A DNA stretch of 64,000 nt, taken from Minisyncoccota bacterium. Its GTDB lineage: Bacteria; Patescibacteriota; Minisyncoccia; Phycocordibacterales; JAACPR01. Where the stretch lies: contig JBAYWG010000001.1 of the NCBI GenBank assembly GCA_041674225.1, forward strand, positions 390,273-454,272. The letters are read 5' to 3'. Made by a program: the position numbers and the translations under genes. Positions 3,305-21,171 of the stretch are shown piece by piece (position 1 is the first letter of the stretch; every line of letters begins with the position of its first letter). The notes beneath the pieces were generated by a model. The model worked only from the letters and a program-made list of their open reading frames with translations. It searched no databases and was not told the DNA's origin.

Positions 3305-3679
3305 ATGAAAAATCATAAAGAATTTGGGAATTATTGTGAGGAAGAGGCGAGTTTGTTTCTTATAAGACAGGGATTTTCGATCTTGTTTAAAAACTATCTG
3401 ACGTCCTTTGGAGAAATAGACATTATTGCCGAGAAGAACAGCGTTATTCACTTTGTTGAGGTCAAGGCAGTTTCACGCGAAACATTCGAAAGGGGAATCA
3501 GACCTCAAGATCATGTTACACGTGAAAAGATTAGAAGGATAAAAATGGTTGCTCAACACTTCTTGGTTTCTTATGGATTGGCCGGAGTTTCCAATCAAAT
3601 TGATCTCGTGGCTATTGTCACAGCGCAAAAACTTTCCAAAGATTTAATTTCTATCGAATATCTACCGCAGATTTTCTAA
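3305..3679 (+). CDS. YraN/UPF0102 family endonuclease-like protein
   Basis: About 120 aa with a GEIDIIA...VHFVEVK core typical of the UPF0102 family. Confidence 0.65.
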   Translation: MKNHKEFGNYCEEEASLFLIRQGFSILFKNYLTSFGEIDIIAEKNSVIHFVEVKAVSRETFERGIRPQDHVTREKIRRIKMVAQHFLVSYGLAGVSNQIDLVAIVTAQKLSKDLISIEYLPQIF

Positions 3680-3800: not shown

Positions 3801-4685
3801 ATGAAAAAAATGAAAATAGTAACTCACGCTGGAAGCTTTCATTTGGATGACTTGTTTGCAATAGCAACTATTTCTTTAATTTATCCAGACATTGAGATTG
3901 TGCGTTCGAGAGATAAAAGTGAAGCGGCAAGCGCTGATTTTGTTGTGGATGTAGGAGACGTGAATGATACAGAAAAAAACAGATTTGATCATCATCAACC
4001 AGGTGGGGCAGGGGTTAGAGAAAATGGTGTTCCATATGCAAGCTTTGGTTTAGTTTGGAAAAAATTTGGAACTGAAGTTTCTGGCGGAGATGCTCGTGTA
4101 CAGGATTTGGTTGATAAAAAAATGGTTCAACCAATTGATGCTGCTGATAACGGTTTCAATATGTATCGTGAAACTAAATCAGGACTATCTCCTTATCTTC
4201 TAGACAACGCTTTCAAGGCTCTGACACCTACGTGGCGAGACGAAGGAACTGTAGATGACACTTTCACTAGAATTCTACCTTTAGCTCGAGAAATCTTATT
4301 AATGGAGATCAAAAAAGCTAAATATTTCTTTGAGGATACTGAAATTGTGAAAGAGGCTTATAAAAATGCGCCTGATAAAAGAATTATTGTTTTGGAACAT
4401 CCTTTGGCTTGGAAATCTGTTATCTCTAGAAAAAATGAACCAATTTATGTTATTCATCCAAATCAAATGACAGGGGAGTGGATTGTCGCTTGTGTGCGAA
4501 AGACCCCACGTTCTCATGAAAATAGAAAACTTTTGCCACAAGCGTGGGCAGGAAAAAGAAAAGAAGATTTGGAAAAAATCACGGGTGTAGAAGGTGCAGA
4601 GTCTTGTCATAACAAAAGATTTATCGCAACAGCGTGGAGTAAAGAAGCTGCGGTGAAATTGGCTGAGATTGCTGTGAAGAATTAA
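3801..4685 (+). CDS. MYG1/UPF0160 family metal-dependent hydrolase
   Basis: N-terminal THAGSFHLDD motif. Start placed at the ATG immediately after tRNA-Pro, because the ORF-track start at 3750 lies inside the tRNA. Confidence 0.7.
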   Translation: MKKMKIVTHAGSFHLDDLFAIATISLIYPDIEIVRSRDKSEAASADFVVDVGDVNDTEKNRFDHHQPGGAGVRENGVPYASFGLVWKKFGTEVSGGDARVQDLVDKKMVQPIDAADNGFNMYRETKSGLSPYLLDNAFKALTPTWRDEGTVDDTFTRILPLAREILLMEIKKAKYFFEDTEIVKEAYKNAPDKRIIVLEHPLAWKSVISRKNEPIYVIHPNQMTGEWIVACVRKTPRSHENRKLLPQAWAGKRKEDLEKITGVEGAESCHNKRFIATAWSKEAAVKLAEIAVKN

Positions 4686-4806
4686 ATTACGGTCACATTG
4701 ACTTTTTGTATTTTTGTGATTTAATTGCGCGTGGACAGCTCTAGGTTATTTCAATTAGAATCTAGGGAATTTCTGTTTTTTGAAACTCAACCCAATTTAA
4801 AACGGG

Positions 4807-5910
4807 ATGACAAGCAATACAGTTAAAAATGAGGAGTCGGAACCTCTCAAAATATTTCCGGAGAAGACTCGAGTCGCTATGCCATTTAAACCCAGGCCGG
4901 ATCAAATATTGGTCTTGCTAATGTTGGAAACTGAAGAAGGGAAGATTGTTTTTCCTAATCTCAATTCAGATGACATCACCTACATTGAAAAGGAGAAGGA
5001 TGGAGTTCTGTATCTCAAGGAAAAGGAGTGTTTGTTTGTGGGCTGTGGAAGAGATCCGCGATTCGATCCAAACGCACATCCAAATAATCCTTGGGACTCT
5101 GCATCTTCGATGATGACCAGACATTTGGGATTATTTAAAAAATACCCAATATGGAGGAAAGTCATTGAAGAGGTCCGCAGTGCCTACAGGGGAAGACAGT
5201 TAGAGTCGGGCGAGATTGCTTTGATGGCTGACGCCCTTTATGGTTCTCATGGTGGACTCGTTGGAGATGCTTCGGTTATTCAGTGGGTGAAAACTGCGTA
5301 CGATGCCGAAATTCATTTCGGTGACAAAAAACAGTTGAAACCATTGGATAGATGGGGTGTGCTCGATATTCTCAAACAACAAAATTCTCCGAGTGCTGAG
5401 TGGTTTGAGATGATGATCAGTGAGTGTCAGTCTCATTACGAAAGGAGTAAGAATGATGCGAAGACAGTCTTTGTGGGTCTTGAACCCAAAAAATTCAATC
5501 ACCCGATTCATGGAGAATTGAATCTGTACATCGTTTCGACCGACAATGAGAAGGTGGCATCGTATGCGTGGAAGAATACGGACGCTGATATTCTAGTTGT
5601 TTTGAAGAGCAATGGACAGGTCGCAATTCAAACTAAAAGAGAGAGGCTTTTTGACATGACGGAAGTCTGGCAAAAAATTGTTGAACTTGAACCAAAAGGA
5701 AGAGGCTCTGAATTGTGGGATTTATATTCCGGTCCGAGGATGATTCTCAACGGTTCTCGATCTAATCCCAATACTCCTCCGACGAAGCTTACTCTGGAAG
5801 AAATAGCTGAAATTATTCAGAACGTTCTGACAGGGAAAGAATACCTCGACAGAATGAGGCCGAGTGTTGGAGACATGCTTGAAGCTGCTCTATCTGGGTT
5901 TGGAAGTTAA
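4807..5910 (+). CDS. Hypothetical protein (367 aa)
   Basis: Long uninterrupted ORF, locally GC-richer. No recognisable motif. Confidence 0.5.
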   Translation: MTSNTVKNEESEPLKIFPEKTRVAMPFKPRPDQILVLLMLETEEGKIVFPNLNSDDITYIEKEKDGVLYLKEKECLFVGCGRDPRFDPNAHPNNPWDSASSMMTRHLGLFKKYPIWRKVIEEVRSAYRGRQLESGEIALMADALYGSHGGLVGDASVIQWVKTAYDAEIHFGDKKQLKPLDRWGVLDILKQQNSPSAEWFEMMISECQSHYERSKNDAKTVFVGLEPKKFNHPIHGELNLYIVSTDNEKVASYAWKNTDADILVVLKSNGQVAIQTKRERLFDMTEVWQKIVELEPKGRGSELWDLYSGPRMILNGSRSNPNTPPTKLTLEEIAEIIQNVLTGKEYLDRMRPSVGDMLEAALSGFGS

Positions 5911-13086: not shown

Positions 13087-14436
13087 TTACTCGTGCCACC
13101 TTCGTTCTGCTCGAATTGGTGCATCTGCAACTAGTTTTATGCGAAGGTCTGAAGGAAGAAAATCAAGGGTGAATGATCTTCCTTCGATTACAATCTTGCT
13201 TTCAGAAGTGTCTCGGATTTTTGATATTTCCCTAGCTGAAAATTCTATAACTTCTTTCTGATATTTTTTTGCGATGTCAGGGATTTTATTTTCAACCCTG
13301 CTTTCTCGGAGTGCTTGTCCGTAAACTTTTTTGATATCTAGATTCGTGTGAAAGAGTCTTAATTCTCCTGATGTGCTCTTGTAGTACATGTTTTTGAAGA
13401 TATTTTTTGTGAATTTTATTTTTGCTAGGTTTAGTAAAGTGAGGTATCTGAAAATGTCTCCCATTGAGAAGATTTTTGCGTTTAGTTTTTTTGCCAATTC
13501 TTTTGTGGTTGAGCTTTTTCCGACTCCACTTTTTCCTTCTAGAGAAATTATTTTGGTCTCCTTTTTTATGTCAGTCTCGATTATTTTGATAACATTTTTT
13601 ATTCCAATTACTTTTCCTGTATCTACTGTGATTGTTTTCTTAGGTTTTTGTATTCTCAATCCTTTGTTTGAAAGATTTTCTTTATTTACTTTATCTATCT
13701 GATCATCTCTGTGATCTCTTTCAATTATTGAATGTAGTATTTCACTTACCCCATGTGATTTTATTCTATGAGTTATTTTCTCTTTTCCTATTTCTGAGAC
13801 CACGCAATCTTTTATTATTGTATTCAGTTCAGCTGTTTTAAATTCCGAGAAGTATTTGTCACCAAAATCTCCGAGACCAGGAACTATATAACCTTTTTCG
13901 TCTAAACATTTATCTAGTTGTCCGATTATTATTTTAACTTTTGGATAAAGAGTTAAGATTTTATTTACTCCCTCTGGTGAGGCTAAGATGTTTGCTACGA
14001 CTATTTTTTCTTCTGCGACATTTTTCTTTAAACATCTTTCGATTGCGTCGATAATAGTGTTTCCAGTTGCTAACATGGGATCAACTATGATGACAAAGTT
14101 GTTTTTGTTTATTTTTCCCTCTTCAAAATCAACCTCTGTTTCTAGTGTTTCCTCGTTTCGCTTTGAGCTTAGGTGGTAATAATTTTTTATTTTAAATTTC
14201 TTTAGGCTCGGGATAAAAGCGAGTGCAGATCTCCAGGGAAGAATAACGACCGTGTTATTTTTTTCTATATGATTTAAAGATTCTTTAATTATTTTGTCTG
14301 TAATTATTTCAGAATTTTCTCTAAAGATTTTTCCTTTGGTTTGTTCATGAAAAGATTTGTTGGGATATCCGGCTCTTAAAATTTTAAATGCGGTGTTGAA
14401 TTTTTTATCTGGAGTTACTATTTTTATTTTCTTCAT
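13087..14436 (-). CDS. Uracil phosphoribosyltransferase fused to cytidylate kinase
   Basis: N-terminal half has DPMLATGNT and YIVPGLGDFGDKYF (UPRT). C-terminal half has P-loop ISLEGKSGVGKSS and cmk-like sequence. Confidence 0.75.
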   Translation of the reverse strand: MKKIKIVTPDKKFNTAFKILRAGYPNKSFHEQTKGKIFRENSEIITDKIIKESLNHIEKNNTVVILPWRSALAFIPSLKKFKIKNYYHLSSKRNEETLETEVDFEEGKINKNNFVIIVDPMLATGNTIIDAIERCLKKNVAEEKIVVANILASPEGVNKILTLYPKVKIIIGQLDKCLDEKGYIVPGLGDFGDKYFSEFKTAELNTIIKDCVVSEIGKEKITHRIKSHGVSEILHSIIERDHRDDQIDKVNKENLSNKGLRIQKPKKTITVDTGKVIGIKNVIKIIETDIKKETKIISLEGKSGVGKSSTTKELAKKLNAKIFSMGDIFRYLTLLNLAKIKFTKNIFKNMYYKSTSGELRLFHTNLDIKKVYGQALRESRVENKIPDIAKKYQKEVIEFSAREISKIRDTSESKIVIEGRSFTLDFLPSDLRIKLVADAPIRAERRWHE

Positions 14437-14460
14437 TTAATTTTATTATAGTTTATTTTT

Positions 14461-14512
14461 TCCGTTTCGTCCTTTTGGACTCATCAGGCAAAGAACTTAC
14501 CTTGCGACAGTG
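14461..14512 (-). ncRNA. Hammerhead ribozyme, type III (HHR-1)
   Basis: Minus-strand read: CACUGUC|GCAAGG-UAAGUU-CUUUGC (stem I) CUGAUGAG UCC-AAAA-GGA (stem II) CGAAAC GGA. Full catalytic core, GUC cleavage triplet. Confidence 0.8.
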
Positions 14513-14581
14513 GACGGATGGAACGTGCATCCGTCAATTTGTTTCAGTTTCAGGAAGTTTTTTCTCCCTAGTGCGCCTCGA

Positions 14582-14962
14582 TTAGCCGTGGCCGATGACC
14601 GGGACGCGACCGATCTCCTCTCTCTCCTCTTGGGCTCGTTGCCTTTCGCGGGCTTCTTCGTGGCCGAAAGAGCGGAGATAACTTTCGTCATGCTCTCGCT
14701 GCTCTTGCTCGTAGGATGCCCGAAGCGGTGTTCGGATCAAGGATGAGAGTTCGTCTCTGACCTCTTTGGGCCATGATTTCCTGATCCGCAGGAGGTCGCC
14801 GATGAATCTCTCAGCGTCATTGATATCGAGGTGTCCTCGCATCATTCGGCAGAGGTCTTCGGAGGTGTTTGGGTGTTGTCTGTTGGTCGGCATGGGTCGT
14901 TTGGGGCGTGGAGTTGGTGGGGACTGTTTCGTCTTGCTTCTACACTTGTAGAAGAGACTCAT
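14582..14962 (-). CDS. Hypothetical small charged protein between two hammerhead ribozymes (coding status uncertain)
   Basis: 126-aa ORF. Its 5' end overlaps HHR-2, so the true start is probably an internal Met. Confidence 0.3.
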   Translation of the reverse strand: MSLFYKCRSKTKQSPPTPRPKRPMPTNRQHPNTSEDLCRMMRGHLDINDAERFIGDLLRIRKSWPKEVRDELSSLIRTPLRASYEQEQREHDESYLRSFGHEEARERQRAQEEREEIGRVPVIGHG

Positions 14963-14990
14963 CAGGCGAGATACTTATCTCGCGACAGAA
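14921..14990 (-). ncRNA. Hammerhead ribozyme, type III (HHR-2)
   Basis: Minus-strand read: UUCUGUC|GCGAGAU-AAGU-AUCUCGC CUGAUGAG UCU-CUUCUAC-AAGU-GUAGAAG-CA-AGA CGAAAC AGUCC. Stem III is CUG/CAG. Confidence 0.8.
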
Positions 14991-15036
14991 GACGGATGGA
15001 ACGTTCATCCGTCAATTTGGTTCAGTTTCAGGAAGT

Positions 15037-15360
15037 TTATTCTTCCTCTGCGCCGGTGCGAATGTACCCTCTTCGCTCGAGTTCCTTCAGGCAGATATGC
15101 ATTTCCCTCGGACTACCTGCTTGAAACAGGACTCGCATTTGTTTGCGGGTTAGTCGGGCAGGGTTTGCTAGATTTGCTTCCGCTCTTTTCATTAGGCGAT
15201 TGAAGGCTTTCTCGCAAGCTGGCGGTGCGTGGCGGTCTTTGGCCTTTGGTGGTTCGGTTTGCTCGCGCATCTTGGCTTTTTGTGCGGAGATTATGCCGTT
15301 GTAGCGTGGTACGCAGGTGCAGGATGTGGTCATGGGTAGTTTGGGGTTTGGGGTTAACAA
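15037..15360 (-). CDS. Hypothetical small protein, possible HTH at C-terminus (coding status uncertain)
   Basis: 107-aa ORF upstream of HHR-2 on the minus strand. Confidence 0.3.
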   Translation of the reverse strand: MLTPNPKLPMTTSCTCVPRYNGIISAQKAKMREQTEPPKAKDRHAPPACEKAFNRLMKRAEANLANPARLTRKQMRVLFQAGSPREMHICLKELERRGYIRTGAEEE

Positions 15361-15747
15361 AGAACAAATTTATTTTTTTGTAAATTGTAAGGTCTAATCC
15401 AACATATTTATAGTCTAGTCAAATTGAGTCAATTGTTTTTATCAGAAGTGGTATTTTTATGTGCAGGGGGTTCAGGCAATATTATAAGTAAAGTATTTGA
15501 AAATATTTTTTATTTATGGTCAATGTGTACAGAGATGGGAGCGAGGTGAATTTAGTGGCTTTAAATATAGCTATTATTTGATTTTTCAGTGTAATTTTTA
15601 GTTTCAAAAAAACTTTTTTATACAACTTTTTTAAAAAAGTAGCAAAAAAATATAAATTCTGTCTAAAATTTGAAACATTATAAAAATGTAAATATGGCTT
15701 AAAATATGATAAAAAATGATATCTAAAATTAGAAACGACAAAAACGC

Positions 15748-15776
15748 TTGACAAAAAATGAAAATGGGTATATACT
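15748..15776 (+). promoter_or_regulatory. Consensus sigma70-type promoter (TTGACA-17 nt-TATACT)
   Basis: Perfect -35 TTGACA at 15748-15753, 17-nt spacer, -10 TATACT at 15771-15776, in an AT-rich region with upstream direct repeats. Confidence 0.6.
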
Positions 15777-15837
15777 ACTTTCAAACCTAAAACAAGCACA
15801 CAACATTCAACAACCAGCCAATAGAAAGGAGGAGGGC

Positions 15838-15888
15838 ATGATTTACCAAATCTACCCCGATGGGACCATTGTGGTCGTCCGCCGATAG
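15838..15888 (+). CDS. Candidate 16-aa leader peptide (MIYQIYPDGTIVVVRR)
   Basis: ATG 5 nt downstream of the strong SD AAGGAGGAGGG, about 55 nt from the predicted TSS. Stop TAG. Confidence 0.3.
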   Translation: MIYQIYPDGTIVVVRR

Positions 15889-16342
15889 GCCGGAATAGTG
15901 GGTTCGTTCAAACCGAATCTGCTCCCTTAAAATAAGATCTTCCACACGGTCTTATTTTAAGGTAGCGGAAGTTACCTAGTTCTTTAAAAGATAAAAGATA
16001 GCCTGCACCTTAATCAGAGTATTGCTAGTACTTTGATTAAGGCGCAGGACATTAACAGTTGTTTGGCGGCCTAAAAATAGGGAAACAAAGTTTCCCCTTT
16101 CGGCTGATCACCGATTGAACTACCCAGGAGGTTTGTGTCATGTTTGAACACGAGCAAGAAAGGTGGAGGAAGATGTTCACAATTTAAAGAACATCTGGAA
16201 GGTTGGTAACCGTAAACTGTTGTGGTGCATGTAAGGGTGCCACGATTGTCCTTTGGACAATCAAAAGTCAATGCCTAATCAATATTAGGTACACACGTCT
16301 ACACGAAGTGATGGAATGCTTAACCAGCTCCATGCACTTCGT

Positions 16343-16396
16343 CCTGTCGCGAGATGCATGTCTCGCCTGATGAGTCCAAAAGGACGAAACAGTTGC
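16343..16396 (+). ncRNA. Hammerhead ribozyme, type III (HHR-3)
   Basis: CCUGUC|GCGAGA-UGCAUG-UCUCGC CUGAUGAG UCC-AAAA-GGA CGAAAC AGUUGC. Shares stem I with HHR-2 and stem II with HHR-1. Confidence 0.85.
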
Positions 16397-16524
16397 ATTT
16401 TTAAAATATAAAATCTTTGTACTGCATTCCGTGTTCAATTCTTTTGGAAGATAAACACCACTCAATTTAATGTGGCCCCCAAAATTGGACACAGTGCTCG
16501 GTATAAAGATTTATACCAACAGTT

Positions 16525-16540
16525 CTTTAAATAAAAATAA
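16525..16540 (+). repeat. 16-nt direct repeat CTTTAAATAAAAATAA (copy 1 of 3)
   Basis: Exact 16-mer, also present at 17307 and 17776. Confidence 0.7.
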
Positions 16541-17252
16541 TCATTTTCTTGGAACTCCGCAGTCACAAAATTGAAACTAAAATTTGGTTTTAATTTTGTG
16601 GCTGTGGAGGGCCCGATAGACTCGCAAGAGTTGATAGGATAGTTGCCAAAAGACAATTACTATCCGGGTGTGTAAAAACATCTAAATCTCCATCTTGAAA
16701 CTAGTGTGCTCCGGGAGGGGTATCCAAACATTAGTGTAGAGAGCTGTAGAAGTCTGCAAACTTCGAAAGCAGTTAGAAGCGTTCAGGGCTGCAACCCAAA
16801 AACGTGGAAAGCCAAGTGTGCATCAGGCACGGCTCGCAAGGCTGTGTGCAGTGCACCCCTCTTTCTTGGCATGTCTTACAACTATATAAAGTTGCTAACG
16901 GCATAAAGAGGGAAATCAATCATCGTAGGGCTGTGCCACAATACCAGAGAATTGGGAAAACTCTGGGTGAAAAGTGGAAGAGGAACGCCACCTCAAATGG
17001 AAAAAGCCCCGGCCAGGGAAATATCCAAGAAGATGATTGAGGATAAAGGGTGCGCACACACCCTAAAACAATTCGGTGAGATTCCGAAATGTGTGGTCAA
17101 AAGACAGCTACCGTTAGCAGCGGTGGTCGGCTCGCAAGAGTATTGCTGTCATTGAGAGTATGTGAGCTTCGGCTTCTGACCTTTGTACTCTCTCCCAAAT
17201 TTTTCGGTTCGGAACTAGGTTCAACCGGGTTGTAAGTTATCCAAAAACTTTC

Positions 17253-17302
17253 TCTGTCTCGAAATGTAATTTCGACTGATGAGCTCAAAAGAGCGAAACA
17301 GA
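17253..17302 (+). ncRNA. Hammerhead ribozyme, type III (HHR-4)
   Basis: UCUGUC|UCGAAAU-GUA-AUUUCGA CUGAUGAG CUC-AAAA-GAG CGAAAC AGA. Stem III is UCUG/CAGA. Confidence 0.85.
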
Positions 17303-17306
17303 TGAT

Positions 17307-17322
17307 CTTTAAATAAAAATAA
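17307..17322 (+). repeat. 16-nt direct repeat CTTTAAATAAAAATAA (copy 2 of 3)
   Basis: Exact copy, immediately 3' of HHR-4. Confidence 0.7.
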
Positions 17323-17775
17323 ATTCTCTGCACCGAATTGCATTTAAGTTTTTTAAATTCAGTTCGGTGCAGGGAGTTGTTGCGACCCCATAGTACGTGA
17401 GTCAAAGAGGGATAAATGATACCCTCGCGAAAAGATCAGCTGCAACATGCTAAAAGAGCTTAGGAATTTATGCTCGATCGAAAAATTTCCAATCATATGA
17501 CCAAGGTCGAAAGACGCTGTTACATCTCCCAGAAGAGATGGTGCGACGAGGCAATCTAGAACGCCTTTTCAATCGCATTACCTAATGCCCTTCAACCGGC
17601 GGTTTATATTACTCGAGATTAGATCTCTTGCGGATATAGATTGGTTAACAAACGACAGGTTAGGTATCTCGTGTTGAATCGGGACATCATCGCAACAATT
17701 TTTCGCACTTTTTCAAAAAAAGTGCACTTCATTGAGCTTACGAAATTTGATATTCGCAAGTTCATAGAGTTTGTA

Positions 17776-17791
17776 CTTTAAATAAAAATAA
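17776..17791 (+). repeat. 16-nt direct repeat CTTTAAATAAAAATAA (copy 3 of 3)
   Basis: Exact copy, immediately 5' of element X copy B. Confidence 0.7.
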
Positions 17792-17793
17792 AA

Positions 17794-17895
17794 GTAGACA
17801 TAGCCAAAGGAATTTTTAAATAGAATTTCTTTGGCTATGTCTACTGAGTGGTAGATGAGCTGCACATTGGTCCGTTTGTGAAAAACAAGGACTCG
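17794..17895 (+). ncRNA. Structured leader element X (copy B)
   Basis: GTAGACATAGCCA...TGGCTATGTCTAC hairpin plus UGAGUGGUAGAU...GUGAAAAACAAGGACUCG. Paralog of 8960-9062. Confidence 0.5.
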
Positions 17896-17924
17896 TCTGA
17901 CGAACGTATCGTCACCCCAGACTT

Positions 17925-18245
17925 ATGAGCAAGCACCACTATCGTAAACCTGCTGCTAAACCTGTGTGTCCTTGCGGACATGCTACGACCGATGCTCTCT
18001 GGGTGTTAGACATCCAAGGAGACCGACCTATCAGGGTTCATCGGCCATGCGGTCAGGCGATCTTGAAGAACGCGCCGAAAGGAACGCAGGGCAAAATTCG
18101 TCCTTCCCGCGAGCTCAAAGAGATTCACAAGAAGCAGAGGTACGAGCGCGAGCTCTCCTCCAGTTTCTGGAACTCCAAGCTTGAAGGTGTCAAAGGCAAG
18201 TCTTTACAAGACTTGGTGAAGACCGCTCCCGACAGGCAGTCCTGA
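17925..18245 (+). CDS. Hypothetical basic Cys-containing protein (106 aa)
   Basis: ORF directly after element X. CPCGH...PCGQ suggests a small zinc-binding fold. Confidence 0.4.
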   Translation: MSKHHYRKPAAKPVCPCGHATTDALWVLDIQGDRPIRVHRPCGQAILKNAPKGTQGKIRPSRELKEIHKKQRYERELSSSFWNSKLEGVKGKSLQDLVKTAPDRQS

Positions 18246-18381
18246 TGGATTGGTTGAAACAAGTTTCTCTAGCTCTTTTCCTTTCAAAAAAGAGTCGCAC
18301 TGTCAGCGGATAATAATCAACCCCGCTAGACTAAGAGTTTGCAGATTTCTTAAATCTGCACTTACTTGAGCTTGCAACAAG

Positions 18382-18780
18382 ATGTTGTTGGTTCATAGAG
18401 TGTTAGTTCTTTCAAAAACAAAACAAAAAAATATGATCATCTCAAATGCATTTTCACTCAACATGTTTGAAACCCTCGAAGGAGAAATTCTCAGCAGAGA
18501 GCTTAGTGTCACGGAAATCTCGAAAGAGCAGGCTGTTGAACTTTTAACAGACCCTGAGCTTGGAGGAGTAGATTCAGCTGTTGGACATGCCGACACTGCT
18601 GCGCTTTTTTCTACGATTCTCGGAATCGAGATCCCGTGTGAGCGCAAGACGATTCAACTCAACCCTGAAAATGGTTGGCTTATTGTCGGGCAGTATCATG
18701 GACCACGTCTTGAAGAAGGAAGTACTACACTTCCGGAGGGTGCCAGTATTCGCTGGTACGAAATCGAGATTAAGTCTTGA
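18382..18780 (+). CDS. Hypothetical protein (132 aa; may start at internal Met 18439)
   Basis: ORF downstream of element Y copy B. Confidence 0.45.
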   Translation: MLLVHRVLVLSKTKQKNMIISNAFSLNMFETLEGEILSRELSVTEISKEQAVELLTDPELGGVDSAVGHADTAALFSTILGIEIPCERKTIQLNPENGWLIVGQYHGPRLEEGSTTLPEGASIRWYEIEIKS

Positions 18781-18789
18781 GAGATTATT

Positions 18790-19077
18790 ATGAATTTGGA
18801 AGAAATTTCAAAGCTCTATGATGATCCTCAAGATGCAATGAGGATTTTACAAACATCTGTTGAAGGAAAACACAGATATTTCCGAAACGAGAAAGCTTTC
18901 GAAAGGTTTCTGAGAAAAGAACAAGACTCATATCAGCGTCGCAAGACTGCTGGTGTTTCAAGTCCGGTTTCACTTCTTGAGAATACTCTCGACTCTTCTC
19001 CTTTAAGGAACGAAACTTTGCCCCCGGGCAGTAATGGTTTCAATGTGATTATCTGGCAGGAAACTTCCAAAGGATAA
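18790..19077 (+). CDS. Hypothetical protein (95 aa)
   Basis: ORF tightly following the previous one (10-nt gap), followed by a terminator. Confidence 0.45.
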   Translation: MNLEEISKLYDDPQDAMRILQTSVEGKHRYFRNEKAFERFLRKEQDSYQRRKTAGVSSPVSLLENTLDSSPLRNETLPPGSNGFNVIIWQETSKG

Positions 19078-19085
19078 TCATTGAA

Positions 19086-19112
19086 CCCTGCAATAAAATG
19101 TAGGGTTTTTTC
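19086..19112 (+). terminator. Rho-independent terminator
   Basis: CCCUGCA-AUAAAA-UGUAGGG hairpin followed by a T6-7 run, 9 nt after the ORF stop. Confidence 0.55.
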
Positions 19113-19127
19113 TTTAAATTTATACAA

Positions 19128-19158
19128 AGCAAAAAGCCGGCGGAGCCGGCTTTTTGCT
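19128..19158. terminator. Bidirectional Rho-independent terminator
   Basis: GCAAAAAGCCGGC-GGA-GCCGGCTTTTTGC, a perfect hairpin with A/T runs on both sides. It lies downstream of hup on the minus strand. Confidence 0.7.
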
Positions 19159-19229
19159 TATTTACTTAAAATTCTGTGAAGATAAATTTAATAACTTAAA
19201 ATTTAACCGTTTTGAACTTGTACGTATAT

Positions 19230-19502
19230 TTATTTAACAGCTTCTTTCAAAGCTTTTGCAGCTCTAAACTTTGGAGTTTTCATAGCTGGAACTTTGATAG
19301 CTTCACCTGTTCTTGGGTTTCTAGCTGTTCGGGCTGCTCGTGTTTTAGCTTCAAAAATACCGAATCCTGCAACTGAAACTTCTTCTCCAGATGTTAAAGA
19401 TTTGATAATTGAATCAAAAACAGCGTCAACAACCTTTTCTGCTTCTACCTTTGTTGTACCTAATACTTCATGTACCTTTTCTACAATGGCTGCTTTATTC
19501 AT
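19230..19502 (-). CDS. hup: DNA-binding protein HU
   Basis: 90 aa. MNKAAIVEKV...GFGIFEAKTRAARTARNPRTGEAIKVPA matches the HU/IHF fold signature. Confidence 0.9.
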   Translation of the reverse strand: MNKAAIVEKVHEVLGTTKVEAEKVVDAVFDSIIKSLTSGEEVSVAGFGIFEAKTRAARTARNPRTGEAIKVPAMKTPKFRAAKALKEAVK

Positions 19503-19659
19503 ATATGTTGGTTGTATTAATCAATCCGTAAAAAACGGGTTTGTTAACCGATAACCGCTTAAAACGACTTTGTTATTAAGCTGGAAATAATTATATAAAA
19601 CAAGGGTTTTATAGCAATAGAGCCACGAGTACACCTTGTTTATAACTTTTTGTCAAAAA

Positions 19660-21171
19660 TTATCTTGCAACTTCAATAACTCTGTTTTCTCGTATCACTG
19701 TAACCTTGATTTCCCCAGGGTATTTTAGGTCTTTTTCTATTTTCAGGGCTATATTCCTAGCTAAATTACGCGCTTCTAAATCTGAAATTTCTTCAGGATT
19801 TACAAAAATTCTTATTTCACGTCCTGCTTGTAGGGCGTAAGATTTTTCTACTCCTTTAAATTCATTGGCTATAGCTTCCAAATCATTTAAGCGTTTTAAG
19901 TAGTTTTCTGTGTTATCTCTTCTGGCTCCTGGACGACTTCCAGAAATAGAATCCGCAACTTGAACGATAATTGATTCAGGTGTTTCATAAGGGTATTCTT
20001 CGTGATGTGCTTGCATAGCTTTTACAACAGATTCATCTGCTCCAAATTTTTGTAAAATTCTGCGCCCGATTTCTACGTGAGTTCCGGCAATTTCGTGATC
20101 AACTGCTTTTCCAATATCGTGAAGAAGTGCACCAGCTTTGGCTACTCGCACATCTGCACCTATTTCTTCAGCAATCATTCCTGCAATGTGAGACATTTCG
20201 ATTGAGTGTTGCAAAACATTGTGACCATAACTCGTTCGAAAGTGAAGTCTTCCTAAAATAGAAATAATTCGTGGGTCTAAATTAAAAATCCCACATTCAT
20301 AAGCGGCTTGTTCTCCTTTTTCAATGATTATTTTATTTATAGATTTCTTTGCTTTTTCAACGCATTCTTCGATTTTTGCAGGTTGAATTCGTCCATCTAG
20401 AACTAATTGTTCCAAAGCTATTTTTGCAATTTCACGACGAACTGGATCAAAAGAAGAAATTGAGATTGTCGCTGGTGTATCATCAATAATTAATTCAACA
20501 CCAGTAGCTCTTTCAAAACTTTTTATGTTTCGACCTTCTTTTCCAATGATTTTTCCTTTTATTTCGTCAGAAGGAAGAGTGACACTGCTAGAAAAAATAT
20601 CTGAAGATACAGAGTTCCCAAGTCGGTGGATAGCTGTGGTTATAATATCGCGAGCTTTTGCTTCCAATTTTTCTTTTCCACTGATATCCATTTTTTGTAA
20701 ACGAATCAAAATATCTTCGGATTGTTCTTTTTCAAGATTTTCAATTAGTTCTTTTTTAGCATCTTCTTTTGAAATTTCTGCAATTTTTTCTATAGAATCA
20801 ATTCTTTCTTTTTCAAGTTTCTTTAATCTGTCTTCAATTTCTTCAATTTGAGTCTCTTTTATTTTAATCTCTTCCGACAATTCATCCAAATCAGTCTGTC
20901 TTTTGTCTAGATAACTTTCTTTATTTATCAGTCTAGCTTCTGTTTTCTCTACTTTTTCTTCAAATTCAATAGCTGTGTCTTTGGCTTCTTTAATAATATT
21001 CTGAGCTTCCTCTCGTGCTGAGACCATCATTTCCTTTATTTCTAGCTCCATTGAGCCTCTTTTACCCAGAGAAATTATGAATCGCAAAAACCATCCCAGA
21101 GCTATTCCGGCTAATCCTGCTGCCATTGCTATTATTAATACTATTAGTAGAGACATGATTTTTAGCGCCAA
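19660..21171 (-). CDS. rny: Ribonuclease Y
   Basis: N-terminal TM helix, coiled-coil, KH domain (GKIIGKEGRNIK) and HD domain (HDIGK), 503 aa. Confidence 0.9.
   Translation of the reverse strand: MALKIMSLLIVLIIAMAAGLAGIALGWFLRFIISLGKRGSMELEIKEMMVSAREEAQNIIKEAKDTAIEFEEKVEKTEARLINKESYLDKRQTDLDELSEEIKIKETQIEEIEDRLKKLEKERIDSIEKIAEISKEDAKKELIENLEKEQSEDILIRLQKMDISGKEKLEAKARDIITTAIHRLGNSVSSDIFSSSVTLPSDEIKGKIIGKEGRNIKSFERATGVELIIDDTPATISISSFDPVRREIAKIALEQLVLDGRIQPAKIEECVEKAKKSINKIIIEKGEQAAYECGIFNLDPRIISILGRLHFRTSYGHNVLQHSIEMSHIAGMIAEEIGADVRVAKAGALLHDIGKAVDHEIAGTHVEIGRRILQKFGADESVVKAMQAHHEEYPYETPESIIVQVADSISGSRPGARRDNTENYLKRLNDLEAIANEFKGVEKSYALQAGREIRIFVNPEEISDLEARNLARNIALKIEKDLKYPGEIKVTVIRENRVIEVAR

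Follow-up and report, generated by a model that had tools for sequence, protein, structure and literature searches.

What does a bacterial promoter drive when it is followed by two kilobases of DNA in which no gene can be discerned? The question is raised by an island of ∼4.8 kb (∼14437–19220) in a contig of a Minisyncoccota bacterium (JBAYWG010000001.1, positions 390,273 to 454,272; this stretch of 64,000 nucleotides is referred to as the window, and coordinates without a locus name are those of the window). An initial annotation had proposed a single structured non-coding RNA of 1.5–1.9 kb for positions 15797–17700. Instead, at least three separately folding modules, designated RNA-X, RNA-Y, and RNA-Z, were found, which are reordered in related islands. 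We consider it probable that the locus gives rise to a long precursor, which is cut by self-cleaving ribozymes into stand-alone structured RNAs of a foreign element.

A non-coding, structured interval behind a promoter

Related islands were found by fetching the contigs of the closest homologues of a DUF1874 protein encoded in the island (loci L124, 16.9 kb; L125–L127; L128; and L132); a further one (L139, 1,527 nt) was reached through a homologue of the 106-aa island protein. The sigma-70-type promoter, already recognized as TTGACA/TATACT in the initial annotation, places the predicted start of transcription near 15783 (Table 1). Promoter-like sites were not enriched in the region (5 found vs 7.9 expected). 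This one, together with its flanks (GCTTGACAAAAAA...TAT(A)AT), is conserved and also heads the related islands L124 (∼3425–3455) and L128 (∼317–347).

Between 15797 and 17900, no open reading frame (ORF) of at least 100 aa was found on the plus strand, and the single one on the minus strand is located at 17097–17405 (102 aa). Gene callers placed zero genes between 14437 and ∼18380, and 6–15 stop codons interrupt each of the six frames in 16541–17255. An alternative genetic code or hidden ORFs were ruled out, as all three kinds of stop occur in every frame. Positions 15783–17800 of the plus strand are non-coding; the early impression that no convincing ORF is present was borne out by the ORF list, by the stops in all frames, and by the lack of codon periodicity described below. 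The interval is also richer in guanine plus cytosine (GC) than its surroundings, as had been noticed before. The host window is AT-rich, with a GC content of ∼0.35 and ordinary table-11 ORFs, and the DNA flanking the island ranges between 0.346 and 0.374, compared with 0.42–0.52 for the island (leader, 0.456; RNA-X, 0.419; RNA-Y, 0.461; RNA-Z, 0.43; i.e., 0.42–0.46 in the interval). The island is probably foreign to its host, a Candidatus Paceibacterota member of the candidate phyla radiation (CPR).

That the interval is strongly structured, as originally claimed, was confirmed by its folding energies and, in its largest segment, by heavy covariation (see below). Compared with dinucleotide shuffles, positions 15783–16348 (−197.8 kcal/mol; shuffles, −143.7 ± 8.3; z −6.5) were more stable than all of 100 controls and positions 16349–17258 (−301.5 kcal/mol; shuffles, −240.8 ± 7.2; z −8.5) than all of 20. 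The reverse complements are stable, too (z −6.1 and −4.95, respectively), because the sequence is rich in helices; for the larger segment, the plus strand was clearly better. The tetraloops of the GNRA and UUCG type listed in the initial annotation are all present, namely, GCAA loops at ∼16624, ∼16838, and ∼17134, a UUCG loop at ∼17169, and the GGGUGCGCACACACCC hairpin at 17049–17064.

The predicted pairing of RNA-Y is maintained by compensatory substitutions

RNA-Y, the largest module, has homologues in two of the related islands. Window positions 16522–17202 and L124 4351–5031 share 76% identity over 704 nt (blastn, E 1e-129); the third homologue, L128 1110–1861, was detected partially by blastn and in its full extent by nhmmer. 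The RNAalifold consensus of the three-way alignment (A4) comprises 183 pairs, 61 of which have both sides changed with pairing kept in at least one sequence; a version with 205 pairs corresponds to 33 helices. Standard pairs filled 89.6% of the cells, compared with 80.2 ± 0.9% in 500 shuffles and 36–45% when the partners were slid by 1–3 columns, and 58 pairs were changed on both sides, which was not reached in any of the 500 shuffles (23.6 ± 3.6; slid controls, 9–12); as the consensus was derived from the same three sequences, both the share of paired cells and the lead over the slid controls are inflated. The predicted fold starts with a 5′ hairpin of 26 bp (16556–16608) and is closed by a helix of 16609–16616 with 17204–17210. 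In a long-range helix between UCAAUCAUCGU (16916–16927) and GAAGAUGAUUGA (17029–17040), a U-A pair is switched to G-C in L128. No variation among the three homologues was seen in a core of 24 nt, CAAGAAGAUGnUUGAGGAUAAAGGG (∼17025–17049), or in the first two GCAA loops. The comparison indicates that the predicted base-pairing of RNA-Y is maintained through compensatory substitutions. RNA-Y is the only segment with strong covariation support, that for RNA-Z being moderate and conservation of RNA-X being confined to its 5′ part.

Codon-level conservation, which the initial annotation had named as a result that would contradict a non-coding RNA, was not found among the homologues. Mismatches between the window and L124 are evenly distributed over the codon phases (51/47/49; p = 0.92), 7 of the 10 indels comprise 1 nt, and each of the six frames contains 4–17 stops in all three homologues, which have no ORF in common. 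A frame of 44–52 codons (MEKAPAREISKKMIEDKG...), located inside RNA-Y, is open in the window (16998–17155) and in L124, and an AGGAGG sequence precedes two mini-ORFs on the plus strand, as if the interval encoded several small proteins or contained a decayed gene. The shared frame was rejected because L128 closes it after 8 codons, though the nucleotide core is conserved there; furthermore, where the window and L124 differ in this frame, the changes are non-synonymous and make up both halves of one compensatory change in a hairpin. The mini-ORF in the leader (16 codons, 15838–15888) and that inside RNA-X (15 codons, 16140–16187), both following a strong AGGAGG, had no tblastn counterpart in the relatives, the frame of 16 codons being too short for a decisive result. 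Considering also the missing 3-nt periodicity of substitutions and the many 1-nt indels, it is highly improbable that the interval is protein-coding after all.

Within the predicted pairs of RNA-Y, G·U is more frequent than A·C in each homologue (26:3, 25:2, and 22:9), a count that is somewhat biased because the pair prediction allowed G·U. This excess favours an RNA of plus-strand sequence over hairpins in DNA and over a transcript of the minus strand.

To which family might such an RNA belong? The covariance model scan suggested in the initial annotation was run with all 4,227 models of Rfam 15. No match was obtained at gathering thresholds in the whole window, and at E ≤ 10, positions 14000–20000 yielded only hammerheads and noise; nor did any Rfam family recur at homologous positions of L124 and L128. 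Thus, no known family explains the region, and RNA-Y lies outside every described Rfam family. The notion that it is a highly diverged member of a described large RNA family (GOLLD, ROOL, OLE, HEARO, raiA, group I/II intron, RNase P, or transfer-messenger RNA [tmRNA]) can draw on general likeness only, i.e., size, many helices, GNRA loops, and carriage by a mobile element; in view of the scans, it appears extremely improbable. The likeness to GOLLD, ROOL, and OLE that had been put forward therefore holds in kind (large, multi-helix, and element-borne) and fails as membership. RNA-Y does show the traits informally associated with large ornate bacterial non-coding RNAs (more than ∼500 nt, many covarying helices, and no coding capacity); with n = 3 sequences, its phylogenetic distribution is not wide enough for statistical covariation tests.

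An invariant 23-mer of RNA-Y gave only chance matches in coding sequence (L129–L131) when genome, metagenome, and viral collections were searched, and nhmmer retrieved zero RNA-Y homologues from 1.1 Mb of hammerhead-bearing viral loci. With three sequences and six related islands in the collections scanned, the family is very rare, which limits the statistics and explains its absence from Rfam.

Ribozymes of two classes occupy the module junctions

The pattern CTGATGA-N-GAAAC is found four times in the window, vs 0.34 expected. Four hammerheads, two on each strand (Table 1), align end to end with the Hammerhead_3 model (model positions 1–54; E 3e-7 to 8e-5). Both plus-strand elements (HHR-3 and HHR-4) read ...CUGUC|... 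CUGAUGAG ... CGAAAC, with the CUGAUGA/GAAA core and the GUC triplet intact. Twelve hammerheads of the island family share this core, and 9 of their 14 predicted pairs are compensatory, which covers most of stems I and II. As judged from these comparisons, the plus-strand elements are sequence-intact type-III hammerheads of three-stem topology and predicted self-cleavers; the punctuation by hammerheads that had been postulated for this region thereby gained support from covariation. A near-identical copy of HHR-4 occupies the same junction in L125/L126 and in L139.

In hammerhead and twister ribozymes alike, the cleavage site is close to the 5′ terminus of the ribozyme; the upstream RNA thereby obtains a clean 3′ end, and the downstream RNA retains the ribozyme body at its 5′ end. 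In L124, at least six hammerheads are accompanied by three elements resembling twister-P1 (RF03160; 4287–4347, 5578–5641, and 6064–6134; 49.6–60.9 bits, cut-off 67.2). The one at 4287–4347 (60.9 bits) lies directly 5′ of motif A (see below) and RNA-Y, and no hammerhead is present there; a second one follows a unit of motif B and a hairpin, a slot that is filled by hammerheads elsewhere. RNA-Y is thus bracketed by two hammerheads in the window, by a twister and a hammerhead in L124, and by a hammerhead on the 5′ side only in L128. In the window, the spacer of 127 nt between HHR-3 and motif A contained no twister at E ≤ 10 (176-nt query for 16396–16522). That unrelated ribozyme classes are interchanged at equivalent junctions speaks for cleavage as the selected function of these sites, and it is the strongest of the indirect arguments available.

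One hammerhead of L124 (3812–3866) deviates by CCGAUGAG instead of CUGAUGAG (core U4 changed to C) and has a CCGU/ACGG stem III; from mutational data on the core, we take it to be possibly weakened or inactive. The hammerhead form CTGATGAGnnCAAAAGnnCGAAAC, with the same form of stem II as in the island, is frequent in IMG/VR (at least 120 loci, L004–L123). Among the loci listed, 60 locus strands carry two or more hammerheads, and in 57 inter-hammerhead intervals of 0.5–2.5 kb, the longest sense ORF took up a median of 56% of the interval; in four intervals inspected individually, it had 131–341 aa. This share suggests that the usual cargo between hammerheads is protein genes. A few intervals with unusually short ORFs (e.g., L044 10336–11921 and L026 5790–7470) could hide further non-coding cargo.

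Segments flanked by hammerheads (16349–17258 on the plus strand, 910 nt; an ORF cassette of 478 nt on the minus strand) could also be excised and joined, by a host ligase of the RtcB type or by the ribozyme, into stable circles, as in eukaryotic retrozymes and viroid-like RNAs. The two hammerheads flanking RNA-Y share stem III (CUGU/ACAG), and the 3′ tail of HHR-4 could re-form this stem with the body of HHR-3. L139 begins and ends in the same hammerhead, and a gene with a faint Pfam match to LigT/2H-phosphoesterases adjoins the DUF1874 gene in L125–L127. Circles were considered by Perreault et al for the hammerhead clusters of prophages, but circular or spliced products, which they sought, were not detected (PMC3088659). 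Moreover, the overlap in L139 is equally explained by an assembly break at a repeated hammerhead of ∼50 nt, and the minimum free energy fold of the excised fragment lacks extended pairing that would join its termini. As the 5′ boundary is a twister in L124 and L128 has no 3′ ribozyme, an RNA circle factory appears unlikely, and the release of stand-alone RNAs from a precursor is the reading followed here.

Modules and short motifs are rearranged among related islands

The 5′ 110 nt of RNA-X and AGUUGGUAAC are kept in L124 (3893–4230) and L128 (∼2290–2650); its 5′ motif, its long hairpin, which covaries, and GGACAUUnACAGUUGUUUGGC are retained in both. RNA-Z has a closing helix of ∼8 bp (GUUGCGA 17379–17385 with UCGCAAC 17690–17696) around an interior of ∼300 nt. 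Window positions 17273–17782 and L139 1–483 are 71% identical over 535 nt; for RNA-Z in these two sequences only, 7 of 73 predicted pairs are compensatory, and the indels measure 41, 1, 2, and 3 nt.

The AU-rich motif A heads each module, and its first copy directly precedes the 5′ hairpin of RNA-Y. Degenerate copies are located at 15980–15998, where RNA-X starts, and at 19111–19128. The motif is always followed by a hairpin of 15–27 bp (20–27 bp at the modules), in which the sequence varies and the pairing is kept. It is also present in L124, L125, and L139 and is preserved across islands with diverged flanks. On the plus strand, it may serve as a single-stranded site for a nuclease, with the hairpin that follows giving protection, and on the minus strand, hairpin and U-tract may form a terminator; it may also be a protein site. 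Module C consists of a hairpin, ACUUCAUUGAGCUU (ACUYAnUUGAGCUU), a second hairpin, GUUCAUAGAGU, and UUCUUU. It is 92% identical to L125 769–850, occurs in L128 and L139, and has a second copy in the window (18340–18419; repeat D13). Further copies (L125 1233–1299; L128 ∼1880–1975, 2800–2890, 4728–4800, and 5456–5516) lie just upstream of ORF starts, and module C may be a translational or processing element. Its sequence is so highly conserved that there is no covariation to test. In IMG/VR, the module C pattern (3 matches) and a 17-mer of motif B (64 matches) gave chance or coding matches (an ELPETE peptide) throughout, and no match was followed by a ribozyme.

The order of the modules differs among the islands, being X-HHR-Y-HHR-Z in the window, HHR(variant)-X-twister-Y-HHR-ORF in L124, X-like-HHR-Z in L125, and HHR-Y...X in L128, where HHR denotes a hammerhead ribozyme. 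The protein cargo varies, and the promoter is kept; non-coding DNA is conserved where most island proteins are not. Reordered modules combined with differing cargo indicate that the RNAs behave as independent units, not as one 1.9-kb molecule or the leader of one gene. Other neighbourhoods of DUF1874 genes (L133–L135 and L204–L206) belong to ordinary phages or unrelated contigs and contained zero RNA modules.

Nevertheless, RNAs and ORFs lie on one strand behind one promoter with no terminator between them, and the conserved module C immediately precedes ORF starts, as would be expected for a long, cis-acting 5′ untranslated region controlling translation or stability of the 106-aa, DUF1874, and 95-aa ORFs. 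Such a leader would be deprived of RNA-X and RNA-Y by the two hammerheads, its module order and adjacent ORFs differ in the relatives, and RNA-Y is predicted to form a closed, self-contained fold, with the first ORF more than 700 nt further downstream. We therefore regard a cis-acting function as distinctly unlikely.

The short motifs can also be viewed at the level of DNA, with motifs A and B and the inverted repeats serving as recombination or replication sites of an integron-like cassette array. They stand beside inverted repeats of 20–27 bp that vary in sequence and keep their pairing, modules and ORF cassettes are shuffled among islands, and on the minus strand, the hairpin with TTATTTTTATTT resembles an intrinsic terminator. 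However, no recombinase or replication gene was found in any island searched, and motif A, as read from the sequence, does not fit the core sites of the attC consensus. The 22–26 G·U vs 2–9 A·C pairs in the helices of RNA-Y would be incompatible with hairpins in DNA or with the opposite strand, the multi-domain fold of this RNA with its long-range helices is no simple palindrome, and ribozymes are strand-specific RNA devices, all of which makes DNA sites a very unlikely explanation.

Three of the related islands contain tRNA-like domains of mini tmRNAs (68–84 nt; L124 7076–7159, L132 678–760, and L128 5540–5607; RF00023, 63–77 bits, cut-off 47); the window island has none. In the copy of L124, the one inspected in alignment, a G3:U70 pair sits in the acceptor stem, a T arm is present, CCA is encoded, and the entire mRNA-like and pseudoknot part has given way to a short hairpin. 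These domains may act as mimics recognized by SmpB or by alanyl-tRNA synthetase. In L125 (1713–2327, minus strand), as well as in L126 and L127, the LigT/2H-phosphoesterase-like gene encodes 204 aa; this family acts on 2′,3′-cyclic phosphate ends, the products of ribozyme cleavage. The ends of L139 lie inside the same hammerhead sequence and overlap by 26 nt, which could mean either an assembly break at a ribozyme that is repeated or a template of circular or tandem form.

Setting and gene content of the island

The island lies between a gene for a uracil phosphoribosyltransferase–cytidylate kinase fusion (UPRT-CMK; 13087–14436, minus strand) and the HU gene (19230–19502, minus strand), and its genomic neighbours differ among the window, L124, and L128. 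The three small ORFs at 17925–19077 would form the distal end of the transcription unit to which the RNAs belong, with the non-coding interval as its proximal half.

Table 1. Features of the island and of one adjacent host gene (window coordinates).
Feature	Position	Strand	Remarks
UPRT-CMK host gene	13087–14436	−	449 aa; uracil phosphoribosyltransferase and cytidylate kinase domains fused
Divergent arm, two cassettes	14459–15360	−	Each with C-rich leader, ∼100-aa ORF, motif B, hairpin, and type-III hammerhead; 92-nt direct repeat D1 and repeat D5
Type-III hammerheads, divergent arm	14921–14991, 14459–14513	−	RF00008, 35.2 and 35.0 bits
Sigma-70-type promoter TTGACA-17-TATACT	15748–15776	+	11/12 consensus match, best in 5-kb scan
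5′ leader	15783–15977	+	Hairpins 15918–15969 and 15960–15977; inverted repeat I13
RNA-X	15978–16340	+	TTCTTTAAAAGATAAAAG, 20-bp hairpin (16002–16048), conserved GGACAUUAACAGUUGUUUGGCGG, variable body (predicted structure)
Type-III hammerhead HHR-3	16341–16395	+	RF00008, 40.4 bits, E 2.4e-6; predicted cleavage C16348/G16349
Spacer	16396–16522	+	Long imperfect hairpin, 16411–16440 with 16483–16512; inverted repeat I5
Motif A (tTCTTTAAATAAAAATAA)	16523–16540, 17305–17322, 17774–17791	+	15-mer TTTAAATAAAAATAA exact at 16526, 17308, and 17777
RNA-Y	16556–17210	+	∼655 nt, multi-domain (predicted); two homologues, L124 and L128
Type-III hammerhead HHR-4	17251–17304	+	RF00008, 43.7 bits, E 2.8e-7; predicted cleavage C17258/U17259
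RNA-Z with motif A copy 2	17305–17701	+	Motif A 17305–17322, then 5′ hairpin of ∼24–26 bp (∼17323–17377), GGAGUUGUUGCGACCCC, closing helix
Module C, motif A copy 3, 22-bp hairpin	17704–17845	+	Module C 17704–17772, motif A 17774–17791, hairpin 17793–17845; upstream of 106-aa ORF
106-aa basic, Cys-rich protein ORF	17925–18245	+	63% homologue in L139, 37% homologue in L132
DUF1874/STIV-B116-like protein ORF	18433–18780	+	Pfam PF08960, 9.7e-10; PDB matches AFV3-109 and STIV B116
95-aa orphan ORF	18790–19077	+	

Except for the DUF1874-like protein, the island proteins are nearly orphans. For the 106-aa protein, a model of pLDDT 76 gave no significant fold match (best PDB match, E 0.19 over 37 columns), and an IMG/VR search guided by the 106-aa and DUF1874 proteins found zero relatives. 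Pfam and PHROGs revealed no recombinase, integrase, replication, or other mobility gene among the island ORFs of the window, L124, and L128. According to one report, the DUF1874 family is AcrIII-1, an anti-CRISPR ring nuclease of viruses (bioRxiv 10.1101/778746), a role that was questioned for native systems (bioRxiv 10.1101/2023.01.10.523387). Its presence suggests a counter-defence flavour of the island and does not tell what the RNAs do. With respect to an RNA anti-CRISPR, no CRISPR array was found in the window. Complementarity between the RNAs and the rest of the window was limited to AT-rich matches of at most 15 nt, i.e., chance level.

On the minus strand, the two cassettes are arranged in tandem (∼478 nt each) and contain orphan ORFs at 15037–15333 and 14582–14893. 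Their conserved, C-rich leader (AAC.CCA..CCCCAAAC.ACCC-ATG) has no Shine-Dalgarno sequence. The unit of motif B (AAACTTCCTGAAACTGAA), hairpin (GACGGATGnACGTTCCATCCGTC), and ribozyme was found again in L124 and L139. From the end of the last hammerhead of this arm, it is 22 nt downstream to the UPRT-CMK start codon, so that read-through from the island would be cut just ahead of the host mRNA.

Proposed mechanism

In the scheme we propose, the promoter would drive one long non-coding precursor that continues into the small ORFs. The hammerheads would cleave it co-transcriptionally after C16348 and C17258, leaving each upstream RNA with a ...CUGUC end carrying a 2′,3′-cyclic phosphate and each downstream RNA with a 5′-hydroxyl followed by the ribozyme body. 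Motif A and its hairpin of 20–27 bp may constitute a second processing or stabilizing device, for example, a site for an endonuclease followed by a hairpin that protects the 5′ end, or a substrate of RNase III. The released RNAs would act in trans by themselves and not as leaders of downstream genes. Their context, i.e., an AcrIII-1-like DUF1874 gene and orphan ORFs and, in relatives, more ribozymes and tmRNA mimics, suggests a role in the conflict between mobile element and host, possibly as scaffold or decoy RNA of the GOLLD/ROOL kind. A bolder version, which has little probability at present, is an RNA-centred mobile module of CPR bacteria: the ribozyme-excised RNAs would be its main cargo, exist as discrete particles (circular, or RNA-only complexes like those of ROOL and GOLLD), and act directly on host defence or translation, with tmRNA-like mimics added in relatives.

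Several points weigh against the release of stand-alone RNAs, in addition to the inflated pairing statistics of RNA-Y. Transcription, cleavage in vivo, RNA stability, processing at motif A, and action in trans are all steps that we infer, and it is the neighbourhood that suggests a link of the RNAs to defence or counter-defence. All four hammerheads of the window score below the curated gathering cut-off of RF00008 (48.5 bits), a shortfall caused by the short stem II loop of 4 nt and by a stem III of only 4 bp, the latter being itself a point of doubt. RNA-Y is represented by three sequences only, all from CPR-like metagenomic contigs, and no ribozyme was detected 3′ of it in L128. The body of RNA-X beyond its 5′ part aligns poorly, which leaves it with a predicted fold only, and the RNA-Z of L125 has kept both ends around an unrelated interior. 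Finally, the label mobile element is inferred from composition, orphan genes, and variable location of an island that has no integrase.

Comparison with known systems

Clustered hammerheads in polycistronic RNAs of prophages cleave transcripts of ∼2 kb in vitro (PMC3088659), and ribozymes of different classes have been found near one another and near certain genes, with a function described as "largely elusive" (PMC6765202, PMC5737381). The island resembles the prophage clusters (Perreault et al, 2011, PMC3088659; review, PMC6765202) in that several hammerheads lie on one strand at the junctions of a long transcript in a phage-like region, that an anti-defence gene is nearby (ardA there, DUF1874 here), and that ribozyme classes co-occur (hammerheads and twisters in L124). 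In contrast to the prophage clusters, in which the ribozymes flank protein genes, two of the segments flanked here are conserved, non-coding structured RNAs, and the host is a CPR bacterium; a full-text literature search for hammerheads in combination with CPR or Patescibacteria returned no relevant report. What sets the island apart is the bracketed cargo, a conserved structured RNA, and the CPR host; clustered hammerheads themselves are already documented. The twister-P1 elements (RF03160) of L124, which have no counterpart in the window, sit at the same kind of junction as the hammerheads.

With retrozymes and viroid-like RNAs, the island shares type-III hammerheads that bracket a structured non-coding RNA of 0.5–1 kb with ligatable ends. 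It differs from them by being bacterial DNA with a sigma-70-type promoter, by flanking ribozymes that are not identical repeats, and by a twister that may replace a hammerhead.

For most self-cleaving ribozymes of bacteria, the biological role has yet to be settled (PMC6765202). Ribozymes that bracket structured RNAs, and not genes, would point to a concrete role, namely, to provide stand-alone RNAs with defined ends, in a lineage in which RNA biology and mobile elements have hardly been explored. RNA-Y would join a very short list of bacterial non-coding RNAs of more than 500 nt with complex conserved folds, members of which were lately shown to form unexpected RNA-only assemblies (PMC12286853). 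Like GOLLD and ROOL (Weinberg, 2017, PMC5737381; cryo-electron microscopy, PMC12286853), it is element-borne and non-coding, in the range of ∼600–800 nt, with dozens of predicted helices and conserved GNRA loops. Unlike these, it matches no covariance model, is not adjacent to tRNA genes, and is represented by three sequences; and its ends are apparently set by self-cleaving ribozymes instead of terminators.

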